From Mobula hypostoma (taxonomy: Eukaryota), in the NCBI RefSeq assembly GCF_963921235.1, contig NC_086107.1, positions 103,914,001 through 103,978,000 on the forward strand: 64,000 bases of DNA, written 5' to 3'. The notes beneath the pieces are model-generated. The model did not search any database and was not told the DNA's origin. It worked only from the letters and a program-made list of their open reading frames with translations. Below are positions 500-63,329 of this stretch, piece by piece (positions within the stretch are counted from its first letter, which is position 1; each line of letters opens with the position of its first letter). The position numbers and the translations under genes are program-made.

Positions 500-3400
500 A
501 TATCCTGAAGTGGGAGGGTGAGGATCCAGAGGTCGTGGTACATATAGGTACCAATGACATAGGTAGGAAAAAGGAAAAGGTCCTGAAAGGAGAATATAGG
601 GAGCTAGGAAGGGAGTTGAGAAAAAGGACCGCAAAGGTAGTAATCTCGGGATGACTGCCTGTGCCACGCGACAGTGAGAGTAGGAATGCAATGAGGTGGA
701 GGATAAATGCGTGGCTGAGGGATTGGAGCAGGGGGCAGGGATTCAAGTTTTTGGATCATTGGGACCTCTTCTGGCGCAGGTGTGACCTGTACAAAAAGGA
801 CGGGTTACACTTGAATCCTAGGGGAACCAATATCCAGGCGGGGAGATTTGCGAGGGCTACTGAGGTGATTTAAACTAGAATGGTTGGGGGGTGGGAATCA
901 AATTAAAGAGACTAGGAGAGAGGAGGTTAGTTCACAACAGGGGGATGGGAACAAGTGCAGATAGACAGAGGGGTGTAAAATGAGGGTAGAAGCAAAAAGT
1001 AGTAAGGTGAAAAGTAAAAGTGGCAGGCTGGCAAATCCAGGGCAAAAATCAAAAAGGGCCACTTTTCAACATAATTGTATAAGGGCTAAGAGTGTTGTAA
1101 AAGCGAGCCTGAAGGCTTTGTGTGTCAATGCAAGGAGCATTCGTAACAAGGTGGATGAATTAAAAGTGCAGATTGTTATTAATGAATATGATATAGTTGG
1201 GATCACAGAGATATGGCTCCAGGGAGACCAAGGATGGGAGCTCAACATTCAGGGATATTCAATATTCAGGAGGGATAGACATGAAAGAAAAGGAAGTGGG
1301 GTAGCATTGCTGGTTAGAGAGGAGATTAATGCAATAGAAAGGAAGGACGTTAGCTGGGAGGATGTGGAATCGATATGGGTAGAGCTGCATAACACTAAGG
1401 GGTAGAAAACGCTGGTGGGAGTTGTGTACAGGCCACCTAACAGTAGTAGTGAGGTTGGGGATGGCATTAAACAGGAAATTAGAAATGTGTGCAATAAAGG
1501 AACAGCAGTTATGATGGGTGACTTCAATCTACATATAGATTGGGTGAACCAAATTGGTAAGGGTGCTGAGGAAGAGGATTTCTTAGAATGTATGCGGGAT
1601 GGTTTTTTGAACCAACATGTCGAAGAACCAACTAGAGAGCAGGCTATTCTAGACTGGGTATTGAGCAATGAGGAAGGGTTAATTAACAATCTTGTCATGA
1701 GAGCCCCTTGGGTAAGAGTGACCATAATATGGTGGAATTCTTCATTAAAATGGAGAGTGACATAGTTAATTCAGAAACAAAGGTTCTGAACTTAAAGAAG
1801 GGTAACTGTGAAGGTATGAGACGTGAATTAGCTAAGATAGACTGGCAAATGACACTTAAAGGGTTGACGGTGGATATGCAATGGCAAGCATTTAAAGATC
1901 GCATGAATGAACTACAACGATTGTTCATCCCAGTTTGGCAAAAGAATAAATCAGGGAAGGTAGTGCACCCGTGGCTGACAAGGGAAATTAGGGATAGTAT
2001 CAATTCCAAAGAAGAAGCATACAAATTAGCCAGAAAAAGTGGCTCACCTGAGGACTGGGAGAAATTCAGAGTCCAGCAGAGGAGGACAAAGGGCTTAATT
2101 AGGAAAGGGAAAAAAGATTATGAGAGAAAACTGGCAGGGAACATAAAAAATCTGACTGTAAAAGCTTTTATAGATATGTGAAAAGAAAAAGATTGGTTAA
2201 GACAAATGTAGGTCCCCTACAGACAGAAACATGTGAATTGATTATGGGGAGCAAGGACATGGCAGACCAATTGAATAACTACTTTGGTTCTGTCTGCACC
2301 AAGGAGGACATAAATAATCTTCCGGAAATAGTAGGGGGCAGAGGGTCCAATGAGATGGAGGAACTGAGGGAAATACATGATAGTAGGGAAGTGGTGTTAG
2401 GTAAATTGAAGGGATTAAAGGCAGATAAATCTCCAGGGCCAGATGGTCTGCATCCCAGAGTGCTAAGGAAAGTAGCCCAAGAAATAGTAGATGCATTAGT
2501 GATAATTTTTCAAAACTCTTTAGATTCTGGATTAGTTCCTGAGGATTGGAGGGTGGTTAATGTAACCCCACTTTTTAAAAAAGGAGGGAGCAAGAAACCA
2601 GGGAATTATAGACCAGTTAGCCTAACGTCGGTGGTGGGGAAACTGCTAGAGTCAGTTATCAAAGGTGTGATAACAGCACATTTGGAAAGCGGTGAAATCA
2701 TCGGACAAAGTCAGCATGGATTTGTGAAAGGAAAGTCATGTCTGACGAATCTCATAGAATTTTTTGAGGATGTAACTAGTAGAATGGATAGGGGAGAACC
2801 AGTGGATGTGGTATATTTGGATTTTCAAAAGGCTTTTGACAAGGTCCCACACAGGAGATTAGTGTGCAAACTTAAAGAACACGGTATTGGGGGTAAGGTA
2901 TTGATGTGGATAGAGAATTGGTTGGCAGACAGGAAGCAAAGAGTGGGAATAAACGGGACCTTTTCAGAATGGCAGGCAGTGATTAGCGGGGTACCGCAAG
3001 ATTCAGTGCTGGGACCCCAGTTGTTTACAATATATATTAATGACTTAGATGAGGGAATTAAATGCAGCATCTCCAAGTTTGTGGATGACACGAAGCTGGG
3101 CAGCAGTGTCAGTTGTGAGGAGGATACTAAGAGGATGCAGGGTGACTTGGATAGGTTAGGTGAGTGGGCAAATTCATGGCAGATGCAATTTAATGTGGAT
3201 AAATGTGAGGTTATCCACTTTGGTGGCAAAAACAGGAAAACAGATTATTATCTGAATGGTGGCCGATTAGGAAAAGGGGAGGTGCAACGAGACCTGGGTG
3301 TCATTATACACCAGTCATTGAAAGTGGGCATGCAGGTACAGCAGGCGGTGAAAAAGGCGAATGGTATGCTGGCATTCATAGCAAGAGGATTGGAGTACAG

Positions 3401-4010
3401 GAGCAGGAAGGTACTACTGCAGTTGTACAAGGCCTTGGTGAGACCACACCTGGAGTATTGTGTGCAGTTTTGGTCCCCTAATGTGAGGAAAGACATCCTT
3501 GCCATAGCAGGCGTACAAAGAAGGTTCACCAGATTGATTCCTGGGATGGCAGGACTTTCATATGATGAAAGACTGGATTGACTAGGCTTATACTGGTTGG
3601 AATTTAGAAGATTGAGGGGGGATCTTATTGAAACATATAAAATCCTAAAGGGATTGGACAGGCTAGATGCAGGAAGATTGATCCCGATGTTGGGGAGATC
3701 CAGAACAAGGGGTCACAGTTTGAGGATAAAGGGGAAGCCTTTTAGGACCGAAATTGGGAAAAACTTCTTCACACAGAGAGTGGTGAATCTGTGGAATTCT
3801 TTGCCACAGGAAACAGTTGAGGCCAGTTCATTGGCTATATTTAAGAGGGAGTTAGATATGGCCCTTGTGGCTACGGGGGTCAGGGGGTATGGAGGGAAGG
3901 CAGGTAGAGGGTTCTGAGTTGGATGATCAGCCATGATCATACTGAATGGCGATGCAGGCTCGAAGGGCCGAAGGGCCTACTCCTGCACCTATTTTCTATG
4001 TTTCTATGTA
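500..4010 (+). mobile_element. CR1-clade LINE (HER1-like), 5'-truncated and inactivated: end of ORF1 (esterase/SGNH-like), ORF2 (APE endonuclease + reverse transcriptase) and 3' tail
   Basis: ORF1 remnant PEVVVHIGTNDIG...DGLHLNPRGTN (~520-873). APE motifs NARSIRNK, GITEIW, GVVYRPP, MGDFN, SDHNMV (1110-1740). RT motifs PGNYRPVSLTS, YLDFQKAFDKVPH, VPQDSVLGP, FVDDTK (2178-3581). CR1 C-terminus FFTQRVVNLWNSLP. Tail cctactcctgcacctattttctatgtttctatg (~3976-4008). Disabled by stops at 1403-1405 and 3579-3581 and frameshifts near 1705 and 2150. Confidence 0.95.
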
Positions 4011-6669: not shown

Positions 6670-8890
6670 TCCATAAGCAGAATCAGGCCATTTGGCCCAT
6701 CATAGCTGATATATTTCCCTCTCGATCCCATTCTCCTGCCTTCTCCCCATAACCTTTCACGCCCTGGCTAATCAAGAACCTATCAACCCTCACCTTAAAT
6801 GACGTGGCCTCCACTCCTCATACGATAAGCCTTTCATTCCCGGAATCATCCTTGTGAACCTACTCAAACCCTCTCCAATGTCAGCACATCCTTTCTTAAT
6901 TATGGGGCCTGAAACTGCTCACAATACTTCAAGTGAGGCCTCACCAGTACCTTGTAAAATCTCAGCAATACATTCTTATTTTTATCTTCCAGTCCTCTCA
7001 AAATAAATGCTAACATTGCATTTGACTTCCTCGCCACTGACTCAACCTGCAAACTAATCTTTAGGGAACCCTGCACGAGGATTCCCAAGTTCCTCTGCAC
7101 CTCAGATTTTTGAAATTTCCCCCCATTTAGAAAATAGCCTGTGCTTTTATTCTTTCTACCAAAGTGCTTGACCATACACTTACCAAAACAGTATTCCATT
7201 TGCCACTTCTTTGCCCCTTCTCCTAATCTGTTGTAAATCTTTCTGCAACCTCCCTGCTTTCTCAGCACAACCTGCTCCTCCACCTATTTTTGTATTGTAT
7301 GCAAATTTAGCGACAAAGCCATGAATTCCATTATCCATATCATTGATGTAACATAAAAAGAAGCAGTCCCAACACCAGACCCGCCAGAATATCACTAATC
7401 ACCAGCAGCCAACCAGAAAAGGCTCTGTTTACTCCCACTCTTTACTCCTGCCAATCAGCCAATCTTTTATTTATGCTAGTATCTACCCTGTAACACCATG
7501 GGCTCTTGTTAATTACAGGATTAATCTACCCTGTAACACCAGGCTCTTGTTAATTACAGGATTAATCTACCCTGTAACACCAGGCTCTTGTTAATTACAG
7601 GATTAATCTACCCTGTAACACCAGGCTCTTGTTAATTACAGGATTAATCTACCCTGTAACACCAGGCTCTTGTTAATTACAGGCTTAATCTACCCTGTAA
7701 CACCAGGCTCTTGTTAATTACAGGCTTAATCTACCCTGTAACACCAGGCTCTTGTTAATTACAGGCTTAATCTACCCTGTAACACCTTGCTCTTGTTAAT
7801 TACAGGCTTAATCTACCCTGTAACACCAGGCTCTTGTTAATTACAGGCTTAATCTACCCTGTAACACCAGGCTCTTGTTAATTACAGGATTAATCTACCC
7901 TGTAACACCAGGCTCTTGTTAATTACAGGCTTAATCTACCCTGTAACACCAGGCTCTTGTTAATTACAGGCTTAATCTACCCTGTAACACCAGGCTCTTG
8001 TTAATTACAGGCTTAATCTACCCTGTAACACCAGGCTCTTGTTAATTACAGGCTTAATCTACCCTGTAACACCAGGCTCTTGTTAATTACAGGCTTAATC
8101 TACCCTGTAACACCAGGCTCTTGTTAATTACAGGCTTAATCTACCCTGTAACACCAGGCTCTTGTTAATTACAGGCTTAATCTACCCTGTAACACCAGGC
8201 TCTTGTTAATTACAGGCTTAATCTACCCTGTAACACCAGGCTCTTGTTAATTACAGGCTTAATCTACCCTGTAACACCAGGCTCTTGTTAATTACAGGCT
8301 TAATCTACCCTGTAACACCAGGCTCTTGTTAATTACAGGATTAATCTACCCTGTAACACCAGGCTCTTGTTAATTACAGGTTTAATCTACCCTGTAACAC
8401 CAGGCTCTTGTTAATTACAGGCTTAATCTACCCTGTAACACCAGGCTCTTGTTAATTACAGGATTAATCTACCCTGTAACACCAGGCTCTTGTTAATTAC
8501 AGGCTTAATCTACCCTGTAACACCATGGGCTGTTATTAAGCAGCCTCATTTGTGGCACCTTGTCAAAAGCCTTCTGGAAGTCCCAAGTACTCCACATCCA
8601 CTGATCCTTCTCTGTCCATCCTGCTTGTTATTTCCTCAAAGAATTCCAGCAGATTTGTCAAACAAGATTAAGGAGACCATGCTGACTACGACCTATTTTA
8701 TCATGTGCCTCCAAGTACCCTGAAAGCACATCTTTAATAATTGACTTCAACATCTTCCCAACCACTGAGGTCAGGCTAACTTGCCTATAATTTCTTTTCT
8801 TCTGCCCCCCCCCCTTCCTGAAGAGTGGAGTGACTTTTGCAATTTTCCAATCCTACAGAACCATGCCAGAATCTATTGAATTCTTGAATG
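6670..8890 (-). mobile_element. Degenerate CR1 LINE fragment (RT to 3' end), interrupted by a 41-bp minisatellite
   Basis: Minus-strand ORFs KFAYNTKIGG, RLGEGAKKWQMEY, YKVLVRPHLKYCEQF. Colinear with the CR1 copy at 34506-35878. Confidence 0.85.
7481..8530 (+). repeat. 41-bp tandem minisatellite, ~26 near-identical copies (atctaccctgtaacaccaggctcttgttaattacaggctta)
   Basis: Units start at 7481 (43-bp variant), then 7524, 7565 ... 8508 at an exact 41-bp period. No spacers. Confidence 0.97.
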
Positions 8891-9257
8891 ATCATTTGAA
8901 TGTGCCTTTCACTTGGCACGTACCTACACAGGGGTGATGTATCCTATCCAGCTAATCTGCCAGCACATGTAGCAAGAATCTGGAGCCACACAATGATAGA
9001 ATGTGTGCCTCCACACAGACAGCATCGGGGCTTTGAGGCAGCCGTGCTAACTTTGGGGCTGATAGGGTCATGGAGTTACACAACACAGAAACAGACACTT
9101 TAGTACAACTTGCAAGGTGCCTACCTCATTAGTACCATTTGTCTGTGCTTAGCCGATAACCTCTCAACCAGGGGTAGCCAACCTTTTACATTCCATGCGT
9201 CAATTTTTTCACGCACGAGTTCAGATGTGATTTTTTCACGCATGAGTTCTATTTTAA

Positions 9258-10776
9258 GCAACATACATCAAAGTTGCTGGTAAACGCAGCAGGCCAAGCA
9301 GCATCTATAGGAAGAGGCGCAGTCGACGTTTCAGGCCGAGACCCTTCGTCAGGACTAACTGAAGGAAGAGTGAGTAAGGGATTTGAAAGCTGGAGGGGGA
9401 GGGGGAGATGCAAAATGATAGGAGAAGACAGGAGGGGGAGGGATAGAGCCGAGAGCTGGACAGGTGATAGGCAAAAGGGGATACGAGAGGATCATGGGAC
9501 AGGAGGTCCGGGAAGAAAGACAAGGAGGCGGGGGTGACCCAGAGGATGGGCAAGAGGTATATTCAGAGGGAGAAAAAGGAGAGTGAGACAAAGAATGTGT
9601 GCATAAAAATGAGTAACAGATGGGGTACGAGGGGGAGGTGGGGCCTTAGCGGAAGTTAGAGAAGTCGATGTTCATGCCATCAGGTTGGAGGCTACCCAGA
9701 CGGAATATAAGGTGTTGTTCCTCCAACCTGAGTGTGGCTTCATCTTTACAGGAGAGGAGGCCGTGGATAGACATGTCAGAATGGGAATGGGATGTGGAAT
9801 TAAAATGTGTGGCCACTGGGAGATCCTGCTTTCTCTGGCGGACAGAGCGTAGATGTTCAGCAAAGCGGTCTCCCAGTCTGCGTTGGGTCTCACCAATATA
9901 TAAAAGGCCACATCGGGAGCACCGGACGCAGTATATCACCCCAGTCGACTCACAGGTGAAGTGATGCCTCACCTGGAAGGACTGTTTGGGGCCCTGAATG
10001 GTGGTAAGGGAGGAAGTGTAAGGGCATGTGTAGCACTTGTTCCGCTTACACGGATAAGTGCCAGGAGGGAGATCAGTGGGGAGGGATGGGGGGGACGAAT
10101 GGACAAGGGAGTTGTGTAGGGAGCGATCCCTGCGGAATGCAGAGAGAAGGGGGGAGGGAAAGATGTGCTTAGTGGTGGGATCCCGTTGGAGGTGGCGGAA
10201 GTTACGGAGAATAATATGTTGGACCCGGAGGCTGGTGGGGTGGTAGGTGAGGACCAGGGGAACCTGGTCCTCACCTACTCCAGAGGACCAGGTGGTGGGA
10301 GGATGGAGTGAGAGCAGATGTACGTGAAATGGGGGAGATGCGTTTAAGAGCAGAGTTGATAGTGGAGGAAGGGAAGCCCCTTTCTTTAAAAAATGAAGAC
10401 ATCTCCCTCGTCCTAGAATGAAAAGCCTCATCCTGAGAGCAGATGCGGCGGAGACGGAGGAATTGCGAGAAGGGGATGGCGTTTTTGCAAGAGACAGGGT
10501 GAGAAGAGGAATAGTCCAGATAGCTGTGAGAGTCAGTAGGCTTATAGTAGACATCAGTGGATAAGCTGTCTCCAGAGACAGAGACAGAAAGATCTAGAAA
10601 GGGGAGGGAGGTGTCGGAAATGGACCAGGTAAACCTGAGGGCAGGGTGAAAGTTGGAGGCAAAGTTAATAAAGTCAGCGAGTTCTGCATGTGTGCAGGAA
10701 GCAGCGCCAATGCAGTCGTCGATGTAGCGAAGGAAAAGTGGGGGACAGATACCAGAATAGGCACGGAACATAGATT
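9258..10776 (-). mobile_element. Penelope-like retroelement, 5'-truncated: RT C-half + GIY-YIG endonuclease + pLTR/3' region
   Basis: PPLFLRYIDDCIG, LPFLDLSV, VYYKPTDSHSYLDYSSSHP (10271-10771) and GVIYCVRCSRCGLLYIGETQRRLGDRFAEH (GIY-YIG, 9646-10554 frame). 12-bp TSD gttctattttaa (9246-9257) / gttctatattaa (10777-10788). Confidence 0.93.
9321..9356 (-). ncRNA. Minimal type I hammerhead ribozyme in the Penelope pLTR
   Basis: Minus strand AGUC-CUGACGA-AGG-gucucgg-CCU-GAAA-CG-UC-GACU: intact core, stems I and II, and the palindromic ACGU stem III typical of dimeric PLE hammerheads. Confidence 0.8.
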
Positions 10777-10884
10777 GTTCTATATTAACGTTTTTTTACA
10801 AGAATTGAATGGGGGTACAAGATTTGAATGGCACATCTGAACTCGTGGAATGTAAAAGGTTGGCCACCCCTGCTCTAAACCTTT

Positions 10885-37200: not shown

Positions 37201-40200
37201 ACCCACTGCCCTGGGAATCGTGTCCCTCTCTCCCCAACAACACAGGAGTAGGTACGTATCTACACTTAAGTTGTCTTTTCCACACCGCTCTCCCCCGCCC
37301 CCCCCCCCGCACAACCAAGTACCTGCTCCCTCACACCACCGGTACTTGCCCTAATTGTTTATTTCCACTCTCTGCCGCAGTGACCGAGTGCAGTAAGAGC
37401 TCCCCCACCACTTACTTCTGGTACCGTGAAACCTTAGAGATCACCGGCTCCATCAATGAGAGTGGAGGCCTGGACCCCACCATGACAGGCTGCCTGTTTG
37501 CAGCATGGGTCATTGTCTGCCTCGCCATGATCAAAGGAATAAAGTCCTCAGGGAAGGTAACATATGATTCCATTTTCATCATTTCCACAGGGAACTATGG
37601 CAGCTCCTGCCAGTCAGGTGTCTGAGGGAGTTATGTTGATTTAACAGTCATCTCTTGAATAAATTGAGGCAGGAGGCACCCAAAAAAATCCCTCTCCAGG
37701 GGCTCCAGGAATTCCACCAAAGGAGCAAATCAGCTCCTGGAGAAAATGGGATTGATTTAAAAAAAAATGGGAATGATGAAGAAAGCATCCCATAGGATTT
37801 TTGCAGAGCAGAGCGCGAAAGTTTCAGAAGGTTCTGAAAGCTAAAGTTCTCACTAAAGAGAGAAGGGATGAGAGTTCATTGGCAGTTGTTTCGACAGGTA
37901 GCCTGGGCAAGTCCATCTCTCTGCTGCTCTGGGGGAGGTTGGCTTATACAGATGGTGAATTCATGGAATTCATTGCCACAGACAGCTATGGAGGCCAAAG
38001 TCTATGGGTATATTTAAAGCAGAGGTTGATTGGTTCTTGATTAGTAGGGGCATCAAAGTTTATGGGGAGAAGGTAGCTGAATGAGGTTGAAAGGGATAAT
38101 AAATCAGCCGTGATGGAATGGCGGACCAGACTCCATGTGTCAAATGCCTAATTCTGCTCACGTGTCTTATGGCCTGTATGAGGAAAGCCAAGAGTCAAGA
38201 AAAAGTTGCAGGGAGTGGCTGCAGGCAAACCTTGGAAGGAAGGGTGAGGATTTACAATTCAGTGACCTGCGTAAGAGTGCAGCTGAGAGGAAGGGTGTGC
38301 GTCAAATGAATGAGACTGTGTTGGGCAGGGTAGAAGCTGGTCAAAATTGGGCAAGAAGAGAAACCCAACGAATAATTAAGCCCTGGTAATGACACTGGAG
38401 GGCCGGCTGGTGGTGTAGTGGTTTCAGCACTGGACTTCAAGGCAGAAGGTCCTGAGTTCAAACCCAGCCGGGTCCCAACCTGAGCAGCAGCAGTGCCTGC
38501 GCAGAAGAAAAGCCTGGCAATCTACTTCCATATCGTGCCATGAAAACCCTGTGGACCCTCTGGTCCATGAAGTCACGAAGAGTCGGACTCAACTTAACGA
38601 CTGAACAACAACAACAAATGACACTGGAAGAGGAGCTGTGGAGTTGGGTAGAGACAGGCAGTGTCAGCGGGGGGTGGGGGGGTAATATTTATTGAAAACA
38701 ATCAGGTGCAGTATGATTAGGTCAAGGAGTTGGGAATGAGCAGTGAGAGTGGTTGGAACCAAGGGCACTAGAGGTCTGTGTTAGTATGAGGGGTTCAGTG
38801 GCCTCTTTTATTCCTACCATGCTTCTAAGCGGGAATATTTTTGCACACACTCACTTGTACTGGGTGGCTAAATGTGCGTTATTCTGGTGAGCAGAGAGTT
38901 GTTAACGTCTTTGCCATTCACCCCACAGGTCATGTACTTCAGTTCCCTCTTCCCTTACCTCGTGCTTTTCTGCTTCCTCATTCGAGGCCTCCTACTGGAA
39001 GGGTCCGCGGATGGAATTCGCTACATGTTCACTCCTAAGGTAGGGGGAAGTGTTTGTGGGAGTGTAAGAGGGAGGGGCTACAACTTGGACCAGGAAATGG
39101 GCTTCAGGTGGTCGTACTGACTGAGATGGTCGGCTGAGGGTTGGAGGCACATTCTGCTCAGTGATGAACTGTCTCATTCCTTCCTTCTCCTAGATCCATT
39201 CTACTTTGATTCCCAGGTGGATGAGGTGGGGCAGGTGACCGAGGGAGGTGGAGGGGGGTCTTACACTTTCTCAAATGTGCCTGTTATCAACAAGTGTCAC
39301 TCTGTGGGAAGTGGAGTAGGAGTCACAACGAACATTTCATTCCTACCCACTGGCATCATTTTCCAAAAGTTATAAATTCATGAAGACTTCAGAGTTACAG
39401 ATATATTTCCACATCTTGTGTGTCACCACAGACCACTACAGCAAAGAAACAGGCCCTTTGGCCCATTTAGTCTGGCTGGCCTGGTTTTCTGCCTTCTCCC
39501 ATCTCCCTGCACCTGGACCATTGCCTTCCATGCTCCTCTGTTCCAAACTTAAGTGTTACAATCGAACCTGCATCCACCACTTATGCCGGCGACTCATTCC
39601 ACACTTGCACCACCCCCTAAAGAAGCTTCCCCTTCAGATTCCCATTAAATATTTTACCTTTCATCCTAAACCTATGTCCTCTAGTTCTAGTATCCTCCAA
39701 CCTGAAAGGACTGTATGGATTCACCCTGTATAAGATCTCCCTTTATTTTCCTGCGCTTCAGAGAATAAAATCCTAAGCTATGCAATCTATCCCTGGAACT
39801 CAGGTCCCAGCAACGCCAATGTAATTTTTCTCTGCATTCTCTGATACCTTTCCTGCGCACTATACTCTAAATTTGACCTCACCTACATCTTCTATAGCAG
39901 AACTTCTCAACCTGGGGTCCACGGACCCCTCAGTTAATGGCAAGGGTCCATGGCATAAAAAAGGGTTAGGAACTCCTGTTTTGCAATTTTAACATAACAG
40001 CCCAACTCCTGTACTCAGTGCCCTGAATTATGAGGGCTGATGTGCCAAAAACCTAACCTGACCTATTTAACCTATCCCTGTGGGAGAGAGTTAATCAGTC
40101 CATTAGACCTGCTATCAGATGTTCTTTGTCTCTTGGCTGAGTGAGATTTAATCGCTGGTTGGTATACTAATGGTTCTGGCTCTGTGCTGTGGTTTTATCG

Positions 40201-43200
40201 ATGGGAAATTGCTTCGAATAAGATAGTGCAACTGATGTAGGAAGTGTCTCAGACTCATTCCAGGAACGTCAGGAAGTGAAGATGGGTTGCAGTGTTCTCA
40301 GCCAGGTTTTTGTGACCAAGAAACAGCAATACTCTGTGTCTGTACCGACCCTAGCACTGTGTAAGACCAGGACATGCGAACAGAATTAGGCTATTCGGCA
40401 CATCGAGTCTGCTCTGCACAGCTAATTTATTCTCCCTGTCAACCCCGTTCTCCTTGTTTCTCCCCATAACCTTTGACACCCATACTAATCAAGAACCTAT
40501 CAACCTGTACTCTAAATATAGTGGATTCCGGTTAGTTGGGACATCTATTGATCAAGCCAGCTGCTTATTTAGGGCAACTCTTAAAAAAAAACACTAATCA
40601 AGAAAATAACCGTAAACAACAGGAGTTCTGCAGATGCTGGAAATTCAAGCAACACACATCAAAGTTGCTGGTGAACGCAGCAGGCCAGGCAGCATCTCTA
40701 GGAAGAGGTACAGTCGACGTTTCAGGCCGAGATTCTTCATCAGGAGTCCTGACGAAGGGTCTCGGCCTGAAACGTCGACTGTACCTCTTCCTAGAGATGC
40801 TGTCTGGCCTGCTGCGTTCACCAGCAACTTTGATGTGTGTTGCAAGAAAATAATTGTGATTCCCTTTATTTAGGGCACTAATTGGGATAGTAGACTTTAG
40901 CTGAACAGTCTCTAACTAGCATCAGACGTGTGCACTTGTGTGGGCATTAGACATTCCACTGTGCTTAGAGCGAACCATTTTGAAGTAGTGTCAATTGTGT
41001 GAGCCTGTATTCAAAAAGCAATGATTTTTGTCGCTGATAGTTGGCGAGTAATAAGCAGTAAGACAATTCAGAACTGTTTTGCTCACTGCGGTTTCCAACA
41101 TTCAGGCTTGGTAATCTCAGAAATGGCTGGGAGTGAAAATGAAACTATTTCACTACATTAACAAGCTATGAACTACAAGAGGTACAGGTATGATCTCCAG
41201 AAAGCCATCACAAGGGCGGTGGAGATTCAAATTAGACTGGAATCAACAAGGGATGCTAGACAGCTGTGGTGGGGTTTGAATGCCATAACCTCCTACAAAG
41301 TTAAACCTTGTGATATAGGGGACAGCAGAGCTTCGCTTCCAGATGAGCTCAATGCCTTCTATGCTCGCTTTGACCACCAGGACAAGGAGGAACAATTGCA
41401 CACTCCATGTCTCCCTGTGATCCTTTGGTCTCAGTATTTGAAGATGATGTGCCTTCAAGAGAGCGAATCCAGGGAAAGCATCCAGTCCAGATAGAGTACC
41501 TGGCCAAGTACTGAAGACCTGTGCTGATCAACTGGCTGGTGTGTTCACGGATATCTTCAACTCTCACTCCAGCAGTGTATGGTATCCACCAGCTTCAAGC
41601 AGGCTTCAATCATACTGATCCCCAAGAAGAGCATGGTAATCTGCCTCAATGACTATCACCCAGTGGCACTTACATCCACAGTGATGAAGTGTTTTGAGAG
41701 GCTGGCGTTGAAGCATATCAGCTCCTGTCTGAGTGGCGACTTGGATCTGCTCCAATTTGCCTACCAAAGCAACAGGTCTAGAGCAGATGCCATCTCATTG
41801 GCTCTTCACACAACCCCGGAACATCTGGACAACAAAGATGCATACATCAGGATGCTCTTTATCAGTTACAGCTCAGTATTTAGTACCATCATCCCCTGAA
41901 AACTAATCAGTAAACTCCAAGATCTGGGCCTCATTGCCCCTTTGTGCAATTGGATCCTGGATTTCCTCAGTTGCAGACCCCAGTCGGTTTGGATTGGCAA
42001 AAACATCATCTCTACAATCTCCATCGGCACAGGATGTGTGCTTAGCCCCTGCTCTACTCACTTTACACCTATGACTGTGTGGCTAAGTACAGCTCCAACA
42101 CCATATACAGGTTTGCTGACGACACCACTGTTGTGGGCCGTATCAAAGGTGGTGGTGAATCAGCAGACAGGACGGAGATTAAAAATTTGGCTGAGTGATG
42201 TCAATACAACAACCTCTTACTCAATGTCAGCAAGACCAGGGAACTGATTGTAGACTTCAGGAGAGGGAAAACAGAGGTCCATGAGCCAGTACTCATCAGA
42301 GGATCGGGTGGAGAGGGTCAGTAACTTTAAATTCCTGGATGTCACTATGTCAGAGGACCTGTTCTGGACCCATCATATAAATATTTTTTCAAAGAAAGGC
42401 CAACAGTTCCTCTACTTCCTCAAGAATCCATGGAGATTTGGCATGTCATCAGAAACTTTGGCAAACCTCAATAGATGTGTGGTGGAAAGTGTGCTGACTG
42501 GCTGTATTATGGCCTGGTATGGAAACACCTCTGCCTTTGAGCAGAAAATCCTACAAAGGGTAGTGGGTTCGGCCCAGTACATCACAAGTAAAGCCCCCCC
42601 CCCACTCCCCCCAACCATTGAGCACATCTACATAAAACGGTGCTGTGGAAAAGCAGCATCCATCATCAAAGATGCACCACCCAGGCCATGCTCTTTTCTC
42701 ACTGCACATCAGGCAGAAGGTACAAGAGCCTCAGGACTCGCACCACCAGGTTCAGGAACAGTTACTACCCCTCAACCGTCAGGCTCTTGAACAAAAGGGG
42801 ATAACTACACTCATTCTATTTCTGGTGTTCCCACAACCGATGGTCTCACTTTAAGGACTCTTTATCTTGTTATTTCATTCTCTCATTTATTGCTATTTAT
42901 TTATATTTGTATTTGTACAATTTATTCATTGATCCTGTTTACAGTTACTGTTCTATAGATTTGCTAAGTATGCTCGCGGTAAAAGAATCTCGGTTGTAGG
43001 TGATGGCATGTATGTACTCGATAATTATAAATTTTACTTTGAATTTGAAGGTATCGACAATCATCTTACAGGTCCACTGGGTAAATTCCCCTGTCAATAA
43101 TAAATAGAAACTAATACAGTTTTATACTACTGTAGTAGTATTGATAGTGTTCTAATTTGTTCTGCATTTCGTTAAAAACCTAATTTGTTACTCAGTTAAA

Positions 43201-46200
43201 TGGTAGTTTGGCTTTTTTATGTGTTTATAACTATTTCCATGAAACTTTGGCTAATTGGAATAGTATTTAATTGGGTGAAAATGTGCTGGTCCCAATGTGC
43301 CCCTATTAACCGGAATCCACTGTATATCCAATGATTTGGCCTCCACAGCCGTCTGTGGCAATGAATTCCACTGACTTACCACCCTCATGCTAAAGAAATT
43401 CCTCCTCATGTCTGTCCTAAAGGGGCATCCTTCTGTTCTGAGACTGTGCCCTCTGGTCCTAGACTCTCCCACTATTGGGAACATCTTCCCCCGTCCACTC
43501 TATATAGACCTTTCAATAATGGGGCATTATAGAAGAGATTTGCTCTGTCTCTTGTTAGGATAATTCCATTTCTGAAGAGTGGGAGACTGCACTCAATTTC
43601 TTGTTGCATAGGTGGCCATTTCACATCAGTTGTCAAACTGCTCTGGCTGGATGGAGTTTTGGTTAGAGGTGGCAGAGTGTACTGCTGTGCTCCCTTACAC
43701 ATTCTCCCTGGACTACATGATTTCCTCAGGGCGTTCCGATTTACTCCACCATCCCAAAGTCATGCAGGTTGGTAGGTTAATTGGCCATTGTAAGTGTGCG
43801 GTTAAGGGTCAAATCAGGAGGGCCAGTGGAAAGTTCAGCAGAATAAATTGGACTGAGGGTAGGTGAGTGGTTGATGGACTATGTGTTATTGCCAATTAAC
43901 TGGCCTCACACTTGTCCCTCAACCACACTTTAGTTAGTTGTGCACAAGGAGAACAGCATGGCCCCTGTCAGCACGCTGTTTTGAAGTTTGAACAAAGAAA
44001 TGCCGTTTTTATACAGAATCAACTAGTTGAATACAGTTCAAAGTTCAAACTAAATTTATTATCAGAGTACCCACTGTATATGTCACCATATACTACCCAG
44101 AGAGTATTGCAGTAGAACAAAATTACAATAGAATCAAAGAAAACACACAAAGACTGAGGGCCATTGTGCAAGTGAAGACAAACTACAAATACGAAAGAAA
44201 CAACAATAATAATAAATAACTAGAAAATAAATAATACTGACCAACTCGTAACTGTGTACGTTCAAATTCCTGATTTGCATGATCAATCCCCAATCACACT
44301 ATGGTATTACAGGTGTTAATAGCCAATAGAATTTACACATTAAAGGCCAATAATACTTCAGAACTAGTAAAGTAACTGACCAATATTAAGTGTCACCCTA
44401 GAATCCTTGGATTACATCCTTATCTTGTCTCAGTAATCCTAATGGCTCTATTTCAAAGCCCTTTCTTGCCTGGCTGACTGCACACTATCTGTAAGCTATC
44501 CTTGCTAGAACTTTGTCTTAGCCCTCACCTTGCCACAACTTCCACGTATGAACCCAAGGAGCCTGTATCTCACTAATAAATTTAAATGACAGTCTAATAA
44601 ATTTAATTTAAACATTAAAGATTAGCCGATTCTGTACTTCAATCTTCACTTGTAGAGTTGCTGGACATTTCTAAATCGGTTTGGTCTCCTGACTTCAGAT
44701 TATTTGCATCTTTTGCAGATTGAAATTTTGGTGGACACACAAGTGTGGCGCCAGGCTGCAACGCAAGTCTTCTTCGCCCTGGGTCTGGGCTTTGGCAGTG
44801 TCATTGCTTATTCCAGCTACAATCCCCACACCAATAATTGCCATTTTGATGCCTATCTCGTCTCCTTCATCAACTTTTTCACATCCGTCTTTGCCACGCT
44901 GGTTGTCTTCGCTGTGCTGGGCTTCCGAGCAAACGTCCTCACTCAGAAATGCTTACAAAGGTACAAGGCATGAGAGTTGGCATATAAAATGGCAACACCC
45001 TCCCCCCCCCCCGCCCCCCACAAAATGCTGGAGGAACTCAGCAGAACGGGCGGCATCTATGGAAAAGAGTAAAACAGTCGCTATTTCAGGCCGAGATGTG
45101 GACTGTTTACTCTTTTCTGTAGATGCTGCCTGGCCTGCTGAGTTCCTCTTGAGAGGTTTGGGTAAGTAGGTTATCTGGTTTAAAAGTGAATTGTGTGTGG
45201 GGGTGTTAATGGGATTAGAAGTGTAATTCCTGTTCGGTTGTAGGTAATGAACCACTTCCAGGAGAGGCAAACACTAGTGAGGACCACAGACTAAATCCTT
45301 CCCCCCTTGACTTGAACCTGTGTCAGGCTGGCTGATGTGATTCATGAGCTGGCTTCATGGTGGAGTTGTTCATCAGTTGATTGTGCTGTGTTTCAGGAAC
45401 ACCGTTCTGGTGACAGATCTGATTAACAGTGGCCTTTTGAACAGAAGTTTGATCCCCGAGTCTTTAAACTTCTCAACGGTATCGCACGAGCAATACAGCA
45501 AATGGTTTAACTCTTGGGAACCGGAGCTGGTCCGTTATGGTGTGGAGCAGTGTGACCTCAGACAAGAAATGCAGAAGGTAAGTCAGCCAACTTGACTAAG
45601 ATTAGAAAGTGGGAATTAGTCTGGAAGGTGAGTCACCAATGGACAGGAATAAGAAGAACTGAGTTGTGATAGACTACTGTTTTAGGTGCCTAGACTCAAA
45701 AGCAGTCAGGTTGATATATACTTCCATCCATTCATCCACCCCACCCACATACATACACATCAGGCACTTTTCTCCACAGCCCCTCAGCACCCTTCAACCC
45801 CCATGTACTGTCACTTTAGACTTCCACTCCACACCTCATGCCCACACTGACACAGTCATTGACCTACTGTGTTTTCATATGCCCTGCTGCGACCTACAGT
45901 ACTGTGCACAAGTCTTTGACACATTTATATAGCTAGGGTACCGAAGACTTTTGCACAGTACTGTATTTGTCAGCGGGGAGCGAGTTTATAAGTCTAGCGG
46001 GAGCATAGGATGTTGGGAATGGCGAGGGTGGAGCGCCGCAGGAGGGATGTGGGGGGAGGTGGCAGAGAAGAAGTGCCAGGGCTAGGGTGGGGGGTGGCAA
46101 AGCTACAGACCTGAGACACCAGGCAAGATCATTTGGTTCCAAACAATTGGCTTATTGATCATTACAGAATGTCTCTCTGGTGCTTCCTGCTCCCTCCCCC

Positions 46201-49200: not shown

Positions 49201-52200
49201 TCCTCCCCCTCTCTACCCTCTCCTTGCCCTCTCCCTCCTTTCCACCCCATCCCCCCGGCCTCCCCCTCTCTACCCTCTCCTCACCCTCTCCCCCCTTTCC
49301 TCCCCTCTCCCCCGCTTTCCCCGGTGGTGTAGGTTGAGTCCTGAGGCTCTTGTACCTTCTACCTGATGGCAGCAACAAGAAAAGAGCATGACCTGGGTGG
49401 TGAGGATCTCTGATGATGGATGCTGCTTTCCTATGACAACGTTTGATGTAGATGTGCGCAGTGGTTGGGAAGGCTTTACCTGTGATGTACTGGGCCAAAT
49501 ACACCACTTGTGGGGAAATATGGATCAACTGTAACTGGAGTTACTGTCATTGTAGGTTTATCGATGATATCCGGGAAATGATTGGTGACCGGCCATTCTT
49601 CCTGTACAAGTACTTGTGGAAATTTATCTGCCCTATTGTTATGGTGGCTCTGCTCCTTGCCAGCCTAATCCATATGTGCATCAAGCACCCAACGTACCGA
49701 GCGTGGAATGAAATCAAGGTAAGGACACTCTGTTACTACTTTATTAGGTGGGAAGGACTCCTGAGGAAGGGTCTTGGCCCAAACCTTGTTCTGTTCATTT
49801 CCCTCCATAGGGTGCTGCCCGACTTGCTAAGTTTCTCCGCCATTTTGTGTGTGTGTTTTGCTCAAGATTTCCAGCATCCGCAGAATCTCTTGTGAATCCA
49901 CTGGAGGAACTTAGCAAGACAAGCAGCATCTGTTGGGGTGGAGGTGCGGGGAGAAATTAATGTTTCAGGCTGAACATCAGGATGGTTCCTCCAATAGAGT
50001 GTCTTGCTCCGGATTGCAGTTCTCTTGTGTGAATGGTCGGCATGGACTCAGTGGGCCCAATGGCTTATTTCTGTGCTGAATCTTTCTTTGTTTCAGGGGT
50101 TCCCAACCTTTTTATGCAAGGGGTCCGTGGACCCCAGCTTGGGAGCTGCTGTTCTCCATCTTTCTCTAAGATGCACAAACTTCACTCCCGCCACCAAACA
50201 AAAACCCCCAGGCACAAAGTGGCAATGAAAAGGTTAAAGATTGTCATGGTGCAAGTCCATAGCTCCCTGAAAGTAGGGTAGTGAAGAAGACGTGAGGCAA
50301 ACTTTCCTTCATCATTTGAGATATTAAGCTATAAAAAACAGTCGTATGGCAGCTGTATGAAAGTCTAATCGGGCAACATTTGGAGTATTGTGTGCTGTTC
50401 TGGATAGTTTATTACAGGAAGGATGTGGAGGCTTTGAAAATAGTGCAGAAGAGATTCGCCAGGATATTATAAGAAGTTGGATTGTTTTCTCTGGAGTTCT
50501 GATAGAAGAATGATATAAAATTATGAGAGGCGTAGATGGGCATATTGTGTTTTATTTTCCTTGAGGGTGTTAAAGTCAAAAACTAGAGGACATTAAAGTA
50601 AGAGGAGGAAAGTTGAAAAAGGTTTATGTGGTAAGTTTTTTTCCCCCACACAGAGTGGTAGATACCTGAAACGCATAAACACAAGAGATGCTGAAAATCC
50701 AGAGTAACACAAAATGTTGGGTGAACTCAGCAGGTCAGGCAGCATCTATGGAGAGGAATAAACTGAGGATGTTTCAGGTTGAGAAAGACTAGAAAGGAAG
50801 GGGGAAGAAGGTGGGGGGTGGAGGGGAAGGAGTCCAAGCTGGCTGTGGACAGGTGAAGCCAGGTGAGTGGTTGGGGAGGAATATGCTGCCAGGGGCAGGG
50901 GTGGAAGCAGACACGGTAGAGATGATTAAAAGGCATTGGCAGGGAACAGAAGGACGTAGACTATGCACAGGCGGATGTGCAGTTTAAATTGGCATCATGG
51001 TTGACACAGACAGACACCATGTTATATAATAGACTCCTGTTCTATACGGCACTATGTTCTAAAAATATCCCTATATTATTGAAGAAAATCAGTGAAAGCA
51101 GCCAGGATATTTAGGAAATTCACGGCGAATTACAACAGTGTCCCTCTAACACTCACCTATCAGCTCATCCCACAGAGATGTAGGTGAACACCCTCTACGC
51201 CTTACTGCAACGTGATACAGAGGACCTCAGCATGTCTGACCATGACACTAGTCGGGGGGTCTTTGCCCTCTCCACTCTAGTTGTGGACATTAGAAATATC
51301 CCAGTCACGAGAAAGTCTGCAGGTTCTGGAAATCCAAGCAACACACACACAAAACTCAGCAACTCAGCAGGCCAGGCAGCATCTATGGAAATGAACAAAT
51401 AGTCAACCACTCGGGGCGAGACCCTCCTTCAGGACTGAAATGTCCCGGTGCTGGTTGGGGCTGCATTCAGCCCAGCTTCAGATATAAATTTGACCTTTCA
51501 TCAACTTGATAGTTATTCATCTGCGGTGTAAAGGTCACTAGCCTGCAATGTTGACAGTTTCTATCTCCACAGTTGATGCCTGACCTCCTGAGCATTATTG
51601 CTTCATTTCTAATTCTAAATATCTGTAATTTTTTTTTAGAACATAGAACAGGACAGCAAGACATTGTGCTGACCTGTACTCCAAGATTAATCTAACCCTT
51701 CCCTCCCACATAGTTCCATTTTGCTTTCATCTATGTGCCTATCAAGCGTCCCTAATGCCTCTGCCACCACCGGCCAACAGTGTGTTCCACTCACTTACCA
51801 ACGCCGTGTAAAATAGAAACACCACCTCTGACGTCCCCCCTATACGTTCCTCCAATCCCCTTAAAATTAGCCCTGAGGAACGAAAGTGCTGACAGTCCAC
51901 TCTATTTATGCCTCTTATCATTTTATGCGCCTCTATCAGGTCACCTGTCATCCTCCTCCGCTTCAAGGAAAAATCTCCACCTCGTTCAACCTTACTGCAG
52001 CATCCTGGTAAACCTCGTTTGCACCCTCTCTAATGCTTCAACATCCTTTCTGTAATGATGACCAGAACTGAACACAATTAGAATCAGGTTTAATATCACT
52101 GGCATATATTGTTAAATTTATTATGCAATACATAATAAAACTCTGAATTACTGTAAACATATATGTATTAGTCATAGAGAAGCACAGCACAAAAACATGC

Positions 52201-56192: not shown

Positions 56193-59029
56193 TATATAGA
56201 CTACATCAAACATCTTGTCCTCATCCACCATTGATTCATGCTCATTAAATACATTTCCATTAACAAATCCTTCCTGATCTGTGACTTCCTAAATTTTTTC
56301 TACCAGACCTCTGATATATCACCTTTCCTGGGTATTACCTCTTTCTGATCCAAAATCAGGCTCTCGATTCTCTGCTGTCCTGGGATTCGTGACCTCTACA
56401 TCATGCAGTCAATTTTTGGACTGTGCCTTCAATACACAATTCTAGGAGCTATCCTGTCCAGTTGGTGTATGGTTCTAGATCTATGCAGCGAATTTGGATC
56501 ATACTTTTAAAGCTCCCTGCAATATGGTCATTGTATGGTGAAATCTGTAAAGTCTAGATCAGAGTAATATACCAACAACAATGATACTAGATCTTTTTAC
56601 TGTAATCTTTGTGTATAGTTTACGATCTTCATTTGTCATGATCAGCACATCGTCCTTAAACTCCATCTCTGTAGTTTTAGTTGGTGCGTTGTTCTGGATC
56701 TCTGTACCTTACAATGCCCTGAGGAGTTGGCACTGTTTTAGATTTCGACATGGTGCACAGTTGCTGTGATTCTGGAGCTCTCCTGTACTCTAAACACCTC
56801 TGGATATTTGTACTGTGTAGACTGCACATGGTTCTAGCATGCGTGGAACTGTACAATCTGTTCTTGATTCTAGATCTCCACACTTACACATTCGTACACG
56901 TGTCTAGAACCCGACACAGTAGTCAGCAGAGGATCATAGGCTTCTACATTCTGTCTCTACAGTGTTTGAGATCTCCATACCATGAAGCCAGTGTAAGTTT
57001 CTACAACTTAACTCTGCAGTGTGAGCACAATTCTAAACTGACAGTGGCTTACAATAATGCTAGTGGTATGTAACCAGGAGCAATGTCACAGCCATGAAAC
57101 AAAGGGCTACTAGAAAGATAAGCGGAGTGCTGACGCATGCTAGTAACACTGAACTGCAGACTGATACTGATCTTTCTGCAGGACGGGTCTTCCCCTTGAG
57201 ATCCTCCAGTAATGTAGGACAACTGGGGCAGCGTTCTCCTCATCCACCACCCAGCCTGAAGGGATAAAGACCCAACACGTGGTTTGAGTGGGTGTTCCGG
57301 GTCTTATTGACTTCATAGATGCAAGGGATTCTGCAGGTGCTGGAAATCGTGAGCAACGCACACAAATTGCTGGAGGAACTTAGCAAGTCAGGCAGCATCT
57401 ATGGAGGAACATTTTGGGCTGAGGCCCTTCATCGTGACTGGAAAGGAAGGCCACAGAATAAAGTGAGGGAGAGGGTGGAGGAGGCAAGTAAATGAAACCA
57501 GGTGAAGGCAAGGTGTGTTTCTCTCCATCGATACTGCCTGACCTGCCGGCTTCCTCCAGCATTTTGTGTGTGTCGTGCTTGTTGACTTCATTTGGTCATG
57601 TGACTTCATTTCTCCAGGAGATTGGAAAGCCCAAATCATTGATTTTTTTAAAATTGGCTTATTATAACATAACGAACAGCTGCAAGGATCTGACCAAATC
57701 AAATTGTGGGTGTATACTGTAGTTAGTGTGCTTGTGTATGTGATGTGCATGTGTAGTTGTTTGTACAGTATATATGCGTGTGTGGACCCATGCTTGTCCA
57801 TTTCCCCACGTGGATACAATTCTGTCTTTGAAGTTCGAAGAACAGACCCTTATTTATCACCCAGTGTTAAAGGATTCAGGCTATTATATAGTTAATGTGA
57901 GAAGCTGTTAACTACTAAAAGTAATTATTAATGAGACAGACAATCTTTGTATTCTCTGTTACCAGACCCCTTTCATTTTAAAAAAAATATTGGTATTTTT
58001 GAACAGTGCTTCATGAAAAATAAAATGTGTGCAAACAGACAAGTTGAGATTTATTTTGTACACTTGATCCCCTGCATTACAGTCATTTGCATTATGGAAA
58101 TCAATTCTTACAGAAAACACATCACATTCTAAAAATTTGAGATACAAAGTAAAATTCACTCATTGAATTAATATGGGGTGAAAAAATAAATGCAAATTTA
58201 ATTTTATCAACTTACTTTTTTAGATGTAGTACCTGTATGCACAGATGTGGCTGTGTAAGGAAACGTCACGATCTGGACTTCCTTTCTAGGAATGCAACAG
58301 TGTGGAATTATGCACAATAATCCGATGCCTGTAATTAAAACAAATTTCATCATGTGTTAATTTAAAGTAAATGTTTAACATTACTTAGATCATAGCGCCG
58401 TACAGCACAGAAATAGGCCATTCGGCTCAGCCGGTCCTTACTGAACATGACAATGGACAATATAAACTCTCATGTCAAACAGCATGAAGTGAATAACTAG
58501 GTGTCAGTTATGTCATTCGAACAATCACATGAGAAATTGCACGTTCACATGGGTAACTTTGTCTGGTATCGATGCCAGGATCTCTGCATTGACCCTGACG
58601 CCGTTCTCCTTGATGCTCCCCTGCTGGCGGCAATGCAGTCCCTCAACGCTGCATATTGCTCCCTTGATGCGGCCATGTTTCCTTCCCTCCCTGCTGCCCA
58701 GAGACGTGCCCAGGAGAGAGATGGAAACATGTCAGGGCATAGCACAGAAAACCGTGAACATGTTTGCTGGAGCAAGAATTGGAATTAATACTTTCTCATC
58801 GCTGCCCCTCCCACAGAATCGTTTTCCCGTGTTCCCTTGGTCCAATTTCTCCAGACCCTGACTCAGAAATGCCTCTCGTACAATAGTCCTCGAAAGCAAA
58901 TTCAGAATTAATTGTGAAATGTACAGAACCTTCAGGAATGTTCTTAACAGCGTCCTAGTTCTGTTGAACTATTCAAATCATGTCATATCATTTCAATTTA
59001 ATTCCTTGCTAAAACACAAGTAGTGAACT

Positions 59030-62780: not shown

Positions 62781-62939
62781 GTGTTCATCTTCAAGCAGTC
62801 GATCATAAACAGAAACAATTTCTGAGGAAGCAACACTCTCGAAAGAAATTTTTGTCCGGTGTTATACAAAGCATTCTGTCTAGATTCATCACGGTCTGGC
62901 GCGGCAACTGCTCTGCACATAGCCACAAGAAACTTCAAA

Positions 62940-63115
62940 GACACACACAAAATGCTGGAGGAACTCAGAAGGCCAGGCAGCAACTATGGAAAAAAAAGTA
63001 CAGTCGACATTTCGGGCCGAAACCCTTTCCACAGATGCTGCCTGGCCTGCTGAGTTCCTCCAGCATTTTGCGTGCGCTGCTCGGATTTCCAACATCTGCA
63101 GATTTTCTCTTGTTT
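62940..63115. mobile_element. Older Penelope pLTR-derived inverted-repeat element
   Basis: caaaatgctggaggaactcagaaggccaggcagca ... tgctgcctggcctgctgagttcctccagcattttg inverted arms around a hammerhead remnant. Confidence 0.75.
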
Positions 63116-63329
63116 TAGAAACTTCAGAAAGTTGTGAATACATCTCAGCACACCACAGAAGCCAGTCTGCCGTCCATGGAATCTGCCTATACTTCTCGCA
63201 GCCTCGGTAAATAAAGCAATGCAAACGAAATATATGCAAAAGAATAAACACAGTAAAAAAACGTTTTACATTCTTTGTGTCATGTGGTAAATACATTCAA
63301 TGGCGCCAACTTATTTTAAAGCATAGCAC

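Follow-up and report, generated by a model that had tools for sequence, protein, structure and literature searches.

The window analysed here is a stretch of 64,000 nucleotides from Mobula hypostoma, and its plus strand carries an SLC6 gene with a coding span of about 31054-53467. All six exon-bearing frames submitted matched PF00209, and the best solved-structure relatives of the one SLC6 exon tested were SIT1/XTRP3. The intron of interest, delimited by exon frames (39040..44718, plus strand, 5,679 nt), lies between exons at 38929-39039 and 44719 to about 44960, and a contig of run X1 ends exactly at the exon boundary at 39039. It contains the relic of a TA-flanked transposon with terminal inverted repeats, recognised by its matching ends (40519..43322, unstranded), which may be of the pogo/Tigger type and which has a LINE-like relic with RT-like frames nested in it at about 41170-43000. 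The same transposon hosts a palindrome of Penelope-like element (PLE) sequence, and the original prediction that this palindrome lies inside the SLC6 gene, with a hammerhead on the gene's sense strand, was borne out. Over 40380-43380 three levels of nesting can be made out, in which an older repeat is split at a TA by the transposon, which in turn holds the PLE palindrome and the LINE-like relic.

As predicted, the palindrome consists of two inverted arms of 97 nt separated by a single base, both of them truncated pLTRs: a left arm on the minus strand (40649..40745), defined by inverted-repeat and copy alignment, and a right arm on the plus strand, the sense strand of the gene (40747..40843). 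Alignment of the arms revealed four differences (4/97, 4.1%; 40733-34 versus 40758-59, 40739 versus 40753, and 40689 versus 40803), which correspond in the sense RNA to the three G-U wobbles and one A-C mismatch that had been read from the letters. Folding of the sense RNA yielded a single hairpin of -202.3 kcal/mol (z -30; 0 of 200 shuffles equally stable), in agreement with the expectation that it would be almost fully paired.

The palindrome is bracketed by an exact 11-nt direct repeat (40599-40609 and 40843-40853), which arose by chance in 252 of 100,000 local shuffles and, in a cruder test in which tandem and simple repeats were counted as well, at 5.5% of random window positions. The claim of a perfect flanking duplication thus holds for these 11 nt, but the true duplication is probably longer: compared over 15 nt the copies are identical at 13 positions, with 40854-40857 matching the left copy at two of four, and from this alignment the target-site duplication probably runs for 15 nt and has been changed twice in its right copy. 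Its left copy would then occupy 40599..40613 and its right copy 40843..40857. If the duplication is 15 nt long, two apparent tandem CC-to-TT changes lie within ~120 nt of each other, at 40733-40734 and 40854-40855.

Contrary to the notion that the insert comprises the two arms alone, 40614..40648 is also element sequence, a minus-strand tail present on the left arm only. It is homologous to the tails of three other copies (49867-49893, 57329-57347 and 63085-63115), and other genomic copies in public-run contigs start matching at 40614; the tail measures 35 nt with a 15-nt duplication and 39 nt with one of 11 nt. The right arm stops at the tail-less end point common to the copies at 9.3 and 12.3 kb. 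Alignment with these two native copies placed the head-to-head junction at 40745..40746, where both arms are cut at the 5' edge of the ribozyme and the native upstream sequence is missing. An assembly artefact was ruled out because S1 contigs span both junctions, and S2 contigs the right one, with 0 differences. Contigs from all four runs show loose ends at 40745. These data support the proposed origin of the palindrome from Penelope-like pLTRs in one insertion event.

The nature of the element was clarified by a longer copy of the same subfamily on the minus strand (9253..10795), which encodes the C-terminal part of a reverse transcriptase (RT), a CX4CxxC linker and a GIY-YIG domain, followed by a pLTR arm directly behind the end of the broken RT/GIY-YIG ORF. 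This copy is 5'-truncated, its reading frame breaks near 10270-10290, and its arm differs from the right arm of the palindrome at 7 of 97 nt. The GIY-YIG domain matched PF01541 (E 1e-4, 23.0 bits), just above the cut-off of 22.6. The RT part has a YIDD motif; it gave no Pfam match at E 0.1 and nothing below E 0.77 in a PDB search, and its Atlas neighbours were PF26215, with one cluster partly RVT_1. The linker between RT and endonuclease (frame 9646-10593) conforms to the Neptune pattern CX2-5CxxC, and two cysteines lie between GIY and YIG in the translation, as expected for the CCHH zinc motif. Judged by the linker and cysteine motifs of PMC8557442, the family is a Neptune-type PLE: the copy shares with the Neptune clade the GIY-YIG domain, the inter-motif cysteines and the linker, the 3' 1.5 kb of the element alone being present in the window. 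Both hallmarks of EN+ PLEs were thus found, a pLTR linked to an ORF of RT and C-terminal GIY-YIG in the 9253-10795 copy, and an inverted 5'-truncated copy with a one-sided 30-40 bp tail and a duplication at 40.6 kb.

In total, 19 segments of the family were found in the window, which we grouped into 15 units. Four of these units are head-to-head pairs (40.6, 45.0, 57.3 and 62.9 kb), each with a different centre. Duplications of 10-11 nt bound three of the four (40.6, 57.3 and 62.9 kb), and all three bounded pairs carry the tail on exactly one arm; the two older insertions among them, at 57307-57591 and 62928-63126, each have a 10-nt duplication. The remaining pair is a stump at 45019-45148 in the next intron of the same SLC6 gene, ~60 nt past the exon end, for which no clear duplication was found (best 5 nt). 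The pairs at 45.0, 57.3 and 62.9 kb are palindromic without any ribozyme core. A solo stump lies on the sense strand at 49754-49931, ~35 nt after a splice donor; it has lost its GAAA box and is followed by a short opposite-strand fragment.

Outside the window the family is very large. A 2.6-kb stretch was matched by 119,702 contigs of run X2 (DNA) with depth concentrated on the arms, where summed contig depth, which is not a copy number, lies five to six orders above that of the flanks. Among the junction joints listed, 14 of 15 are other fold-back junctions, and 1054 further joints were present. With 4 of the 15 window units head-to-head and so many fold-back junctions in public-run contigs, palindromy is a routine outcome for this PLE family. 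Among the joints listed, 14 of 15 also end at 40745-40766, the 5' edge of the ribozyme, most rows having unknown letters in between. This is suggestive of a junction hot spot there, the stretch compared lacking the native upstream sequence; the gathered junctions may mark an RNA 5' end or a stop of the reverse transcriptase, or a bias of the stretch compared.

The right arm bears a minimal type I hammerhead motif on the plus strand (40745..40780). Its core comprises CUGACGA (40749-55), an extra A (40756), GAAA (40769-72) and GUC ending at C40776, after which the cut is predicted. Stem I (40745-48/40777-80) and stem II (40757-60/40765-68, with G-U at its base) have 4 bp each, and stem III is a four-base palindrome (40772-75) with a zero-nucleotide loop. 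The 9.3-kb copy keeps an intact native minimal hammerhead with a 5-bp stem I; the stem of the right arm is one base pair shorter because the junction removed a U. The description of the right arm as carrying a complete hammerhead is therefore correct as to the core and stems, but what is complete is only the minimal motif, with a loopless stem III and a 4-bp stem I. The left arm contains the corresponding minus-strand motif (40712..40747), in which the core letters are kept and stems I and II are damaged as had been predicted, by a junction-made C-C mismatch and two A-C mismatches, respectively. No second intact core was found on the plus strand anywhere in the window.

These features agree closely with the minimal type I PLE hammerheads of Cervera and de la Pena 2014 (PMC4209133, as far as the available text goes), namely CUGANGA, GAAA, NUH, a helix I of 4-5 bp, an extra base (9.1) between 9 and 10.1, and a palindromic 15.2-16.2 helix III without a loop. 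They differ in helix II: the available part of that source describes G10.1-C11.1 as highly conserved, whereas the 4-bp helix II of the right arm starts with G-U, as it does in all four young arms, an older copy at 28 kb having G-C. Position 40768, hammerhead position 11.1, is U in all four young arms versus C in older copies, suggesting from alignment that the young subfamily may have spread with a weakened stem II. The Infernal/Rfam scan proposed for the locus did not recover a hammerhead: nothing in the window reached gathering score, and three narrower searches, run up to E 10, gave no hammerhead family. Rfam is silent because the architecture of the motif is minimal, so that this silence is not evidence against it; a canonical Rfam-type hammerhead, with a covariance match and a closed stem III with a loop, is not what the right arm contains.

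Since stem III has no loop, it closes only in a dimer and not in one molecule. In folding calculations, in which the nearest-neighbour energies take no account of Mg2+, tertiary contacts or proteins, the isolated motif formed stems I and II but closed its core into a rod (open-core probability 0.001). The dimeric hammerhead fold reached -11.9 kcal/mol, compared with -11.2 per monomer rod and -30.7 for the most stable two-strand structure. In the experiments described in the part of PMC4209133 at hand, a single minimal motif gave no detectable cleavage and dimers cleaved at low levels; the same text reports pairs of minimal motifs on opposite strands, 100-700 bp apart. An anole element ribozyme, according to the available text of PMC11167929, cuts only together with its protein. 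On these folding models the ribozyme of the right arm is likely to show no activity, whether or not the second arm is present.

The insertion and its flanks were compared with two other organisms. The flanks diverge by 33/1515 (2.2%) from organism B (four contigs, repeat-only contigs 29-32 left out) and by 32/828 (3.9%) from organism C (three contigs, records 12-16 left out). Organism B likely shares the insertion, judging from a single contig that covers 20 nt of arm, short of the 31-letter rule. In organism C, a contig of single-copy depth aligns over 40483-40613 and then continues with 74 letters unlike the window, which points to a likely empty site. Because divergence between the arms is no lower than that of the flanks, the arms are without sign of constraint, small as these numbers are, and the palindrome is, by this comparison, likely decaying neutrally.

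We are highly confident that the locus holds a remnant of a highly abundant Neptune-type PLE, inserted with most of its 5' part missing, with a hammerhead that is likely inert, a palindrome likely undergoing neutral decay and probably no safety catch. In the mechanism we propose, the endonuclease of the element would cut A/T-rich DNA in a staggered fashion, and the second, inverted arm would form in the course of integration: both nicked strands would prime reverse transcription at two adjacent start sites, with and without the tail, and the two short cDNAs would be joined at 1-2 nt of microhomology. Such two-nick priming is the most likely route, because the anole protein, in the available text of PMC11167929, cleaves and extends both strands, with two start sites delimiting the tail, and because the tail is on one arm only in all three bounded palindromes. 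A close rival is fold-back self-priming, in which the inverted arm is made as proposed for inverted PLE arms in the portion of PMC3846280 available, and we regard it as a serious contender.

The masking of the ribozyme by its own antisense arm had been put forward as a built-in safety catch. The physical part of this proposal is supported by the model: as soon as transcription has passed the 3' strand of stem I, 31 of the 32 core and stem bases of the ribozyme are predicted to pair with the left arm. The functional part is not. Whichever strand is read, transcription of a head-to-head pair reaches the antisense arm before the sense one, so that masking is a matter of geometry, and folding of the opposite-strand transcript indeed masked 31 of 33 core and stem bases likewise; the hairpins of the two strands reached -196.1 and -190.6 kcal/mol, a gap of 5.5 in about 195. 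Each of the four differences between the arms is a C-to-T change on one of the two strands, and their wobble pattern is what such decay produces at chance level: three wobbles of four have a probability of 0.31, which rises to 0.5 when the tandem change is counted as a single event. At the observed divergence rates, a 36-nt ribozyme would remain unchanged with a probability of 0.47-0.67. On the other side of the balance, the changes that damage a ribozyme are all on the left arm (3 nt, two events), with none in the right ribozyme.

A selective version of the same idea is that solo sense-intronic hammerheads cut the pre-mRNA, through trans pairing with family RNA or with the help of the element protein, and are purged, and that self-masked palindromes are kept. 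Consistent with it, the predicted co-transcriptional masking is nearly complete, and among the three sense-strand segments inside the gene the sole intact core is the palindromic one, the solo sense copy (49754-49895) having a broken core; this is a comparison with n = 1, old copies of the family are dead on both strands, and the 40.6-kb copy belongs to the youngest group. Family sequence is also plentiful in run X1, a guessed RNA run, so that trans partners could exist, and an intronic ribozyme can influence host mRNA in the CPEB3 case (available text of PMC10919898). Against these points, the masking is symmetric and automatic and is accompanied by palindromes lacking a core at 45.0, 57.3 and 62.9 kb, and the wobble bias and the intact core are both at chance level. 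The cut would moreover be required within about 1 min, the time needed to transcribe the 3,942 nt that precede the next acceptor at the mammalian rate of 3.5-4.1 knt/min quoted in that CPEB3 text, whereas the minimal motifs in the accessible part of PMC4209133 showed no activity as monomers and slow cleavage as dimers, and introns cut by a hammerhead are still spliced in studies cited in the part of PMC2995048 seen. The ribozyme likely needs no catch, because its stem III cannot close alone, no second intact plus-strand core exists in the window and published monomers showed no detectable cleavage, and we consider selection for masking very improbable. Judged by titles and abstract openings, no literature proposing self-antisense masking of PLE hammerheads was found. 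If true, the proposal would mean that a transposon ribozyme is neutralised by its own insertion geometry, and it would offer a first indication of minimal PLE ribozyme activity in host pre-mRNA.

Even less probable, in our judgement, is that the palindrome is a self-propagating non-autonomous unit, a MITE-like mini-PLE whose copies are made in one piece from a palindromic master. Some junctions do lie far above single-copy depth (336 versus about 12 in X2), and some of the deep ones recur in two or three organisms. However, the four different centres of the head-to-head copies in the window, and the 14 different junctions among those listed with the 1054 further ones, fit a second arm made anew at each insertion. 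A non-LTR retrozyme was also rejected: in such elements, units that each contain a complete hammerhead follow one another head-to-tail in tandem (10.64898/2026.07.22.740005, in the part available), and the arms here are head-to-head and single.

Under the preferred reading, a truncated and neutrally decaying insertion, the arms would pair in the pre-mRNA into a 97-bp hairpin that buries the ribozyme core as a geometric side effect, and the hairpin, perhaps edited by ADAR, would leave with the spliced intron. Intronic inverted repeats are known ADAR editing substrates, and from the modelled fold it is plausible that this double-stranded RNA could serve ADAR or Dicer, as had been suggested. A>G and T>C places were no more numerous in run X1 (10 and 12) than in the DNA run X2 (13 and 15), counts that carry no weight for or against editing because the arms are overwhelmed by paralogues and rare variants are lost in contigs. 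An X1 contig unique to the palindrome locus had 0 other letters over 40818-40843, where contigs again drop rare variants, and on the two sides of the ribozyme X1 contigs had similar depths, 10.8 on the left and 11.7 on the right, values that cannot show RNA level. The least credible of the readings considered is that the hairpin has been co-opted, either to yield microRNAs or siRNAs or to control editing or splicing of SLC6 transcripts, since the great stability of the 97-bp hairpin and the intronic contigs on both sides in X1 are set against Rfam microRNA matches that are all below gathering scores and reflect merely a long stem, arms that have diverged no less than the flanks, and the likely absence of the insertion from organism C. 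A microRNA gene was likewise rejected.

The layout of the palindrome was already described in 2013 and 2021, and the insertion is one of very many PLE stumps. According to the available parts of Arkhipova et al. 2013 (PMC3846280) and Craig et al. 2021 (PMC8557442), EN+ PLEs typically leave an inverted 5'-truncated copy with a tail of 30-40 bp at one end and target-site duplications of 8-10 bp, and our locus resembles these insertion units, the pLTR hammerhead included. It differs from the units published there in that the palindrome lacks an ORF remnant, the insert being about 230 bp of pLTR, and in that both arms start at the ribozyme 5' edge, which is why each strand keeps a core. The CPEB3 HDV-like ribozyme (PMC10919898, text available in part) is likewise an intronic self-cleaving motif on the sense strand, but it is conserved and has a half-life of 2-3 min. 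The right-arm hammerhead is, in contrast to functional intronic ribozymes, young, repeat-derived, dimer-dependent and without conservation; such functional intronic ribozymes reportedly include the ultraconserved intronic hammerheads of amniotes. A large family with thousands of fold-back junctions is a natural data set for the formation of inverted arms by PLEs, including the restriction of the tail to one arm and the position of junctions close to the ribozyme 5' edge, and it also suits an orientation-by-palindromy test of the host cost of PLE hammerheads.

Two further features were observed elsewhere in the window. Over about 7530-8500, identical translations recur and reveal a tandem array with a period of ~41 nt, and a 485-aa open frame on the plus strand (2124-3578) matched RVT_1 (E 3.5e-31) and is a piece of a LINE-type reverse transcriptase.
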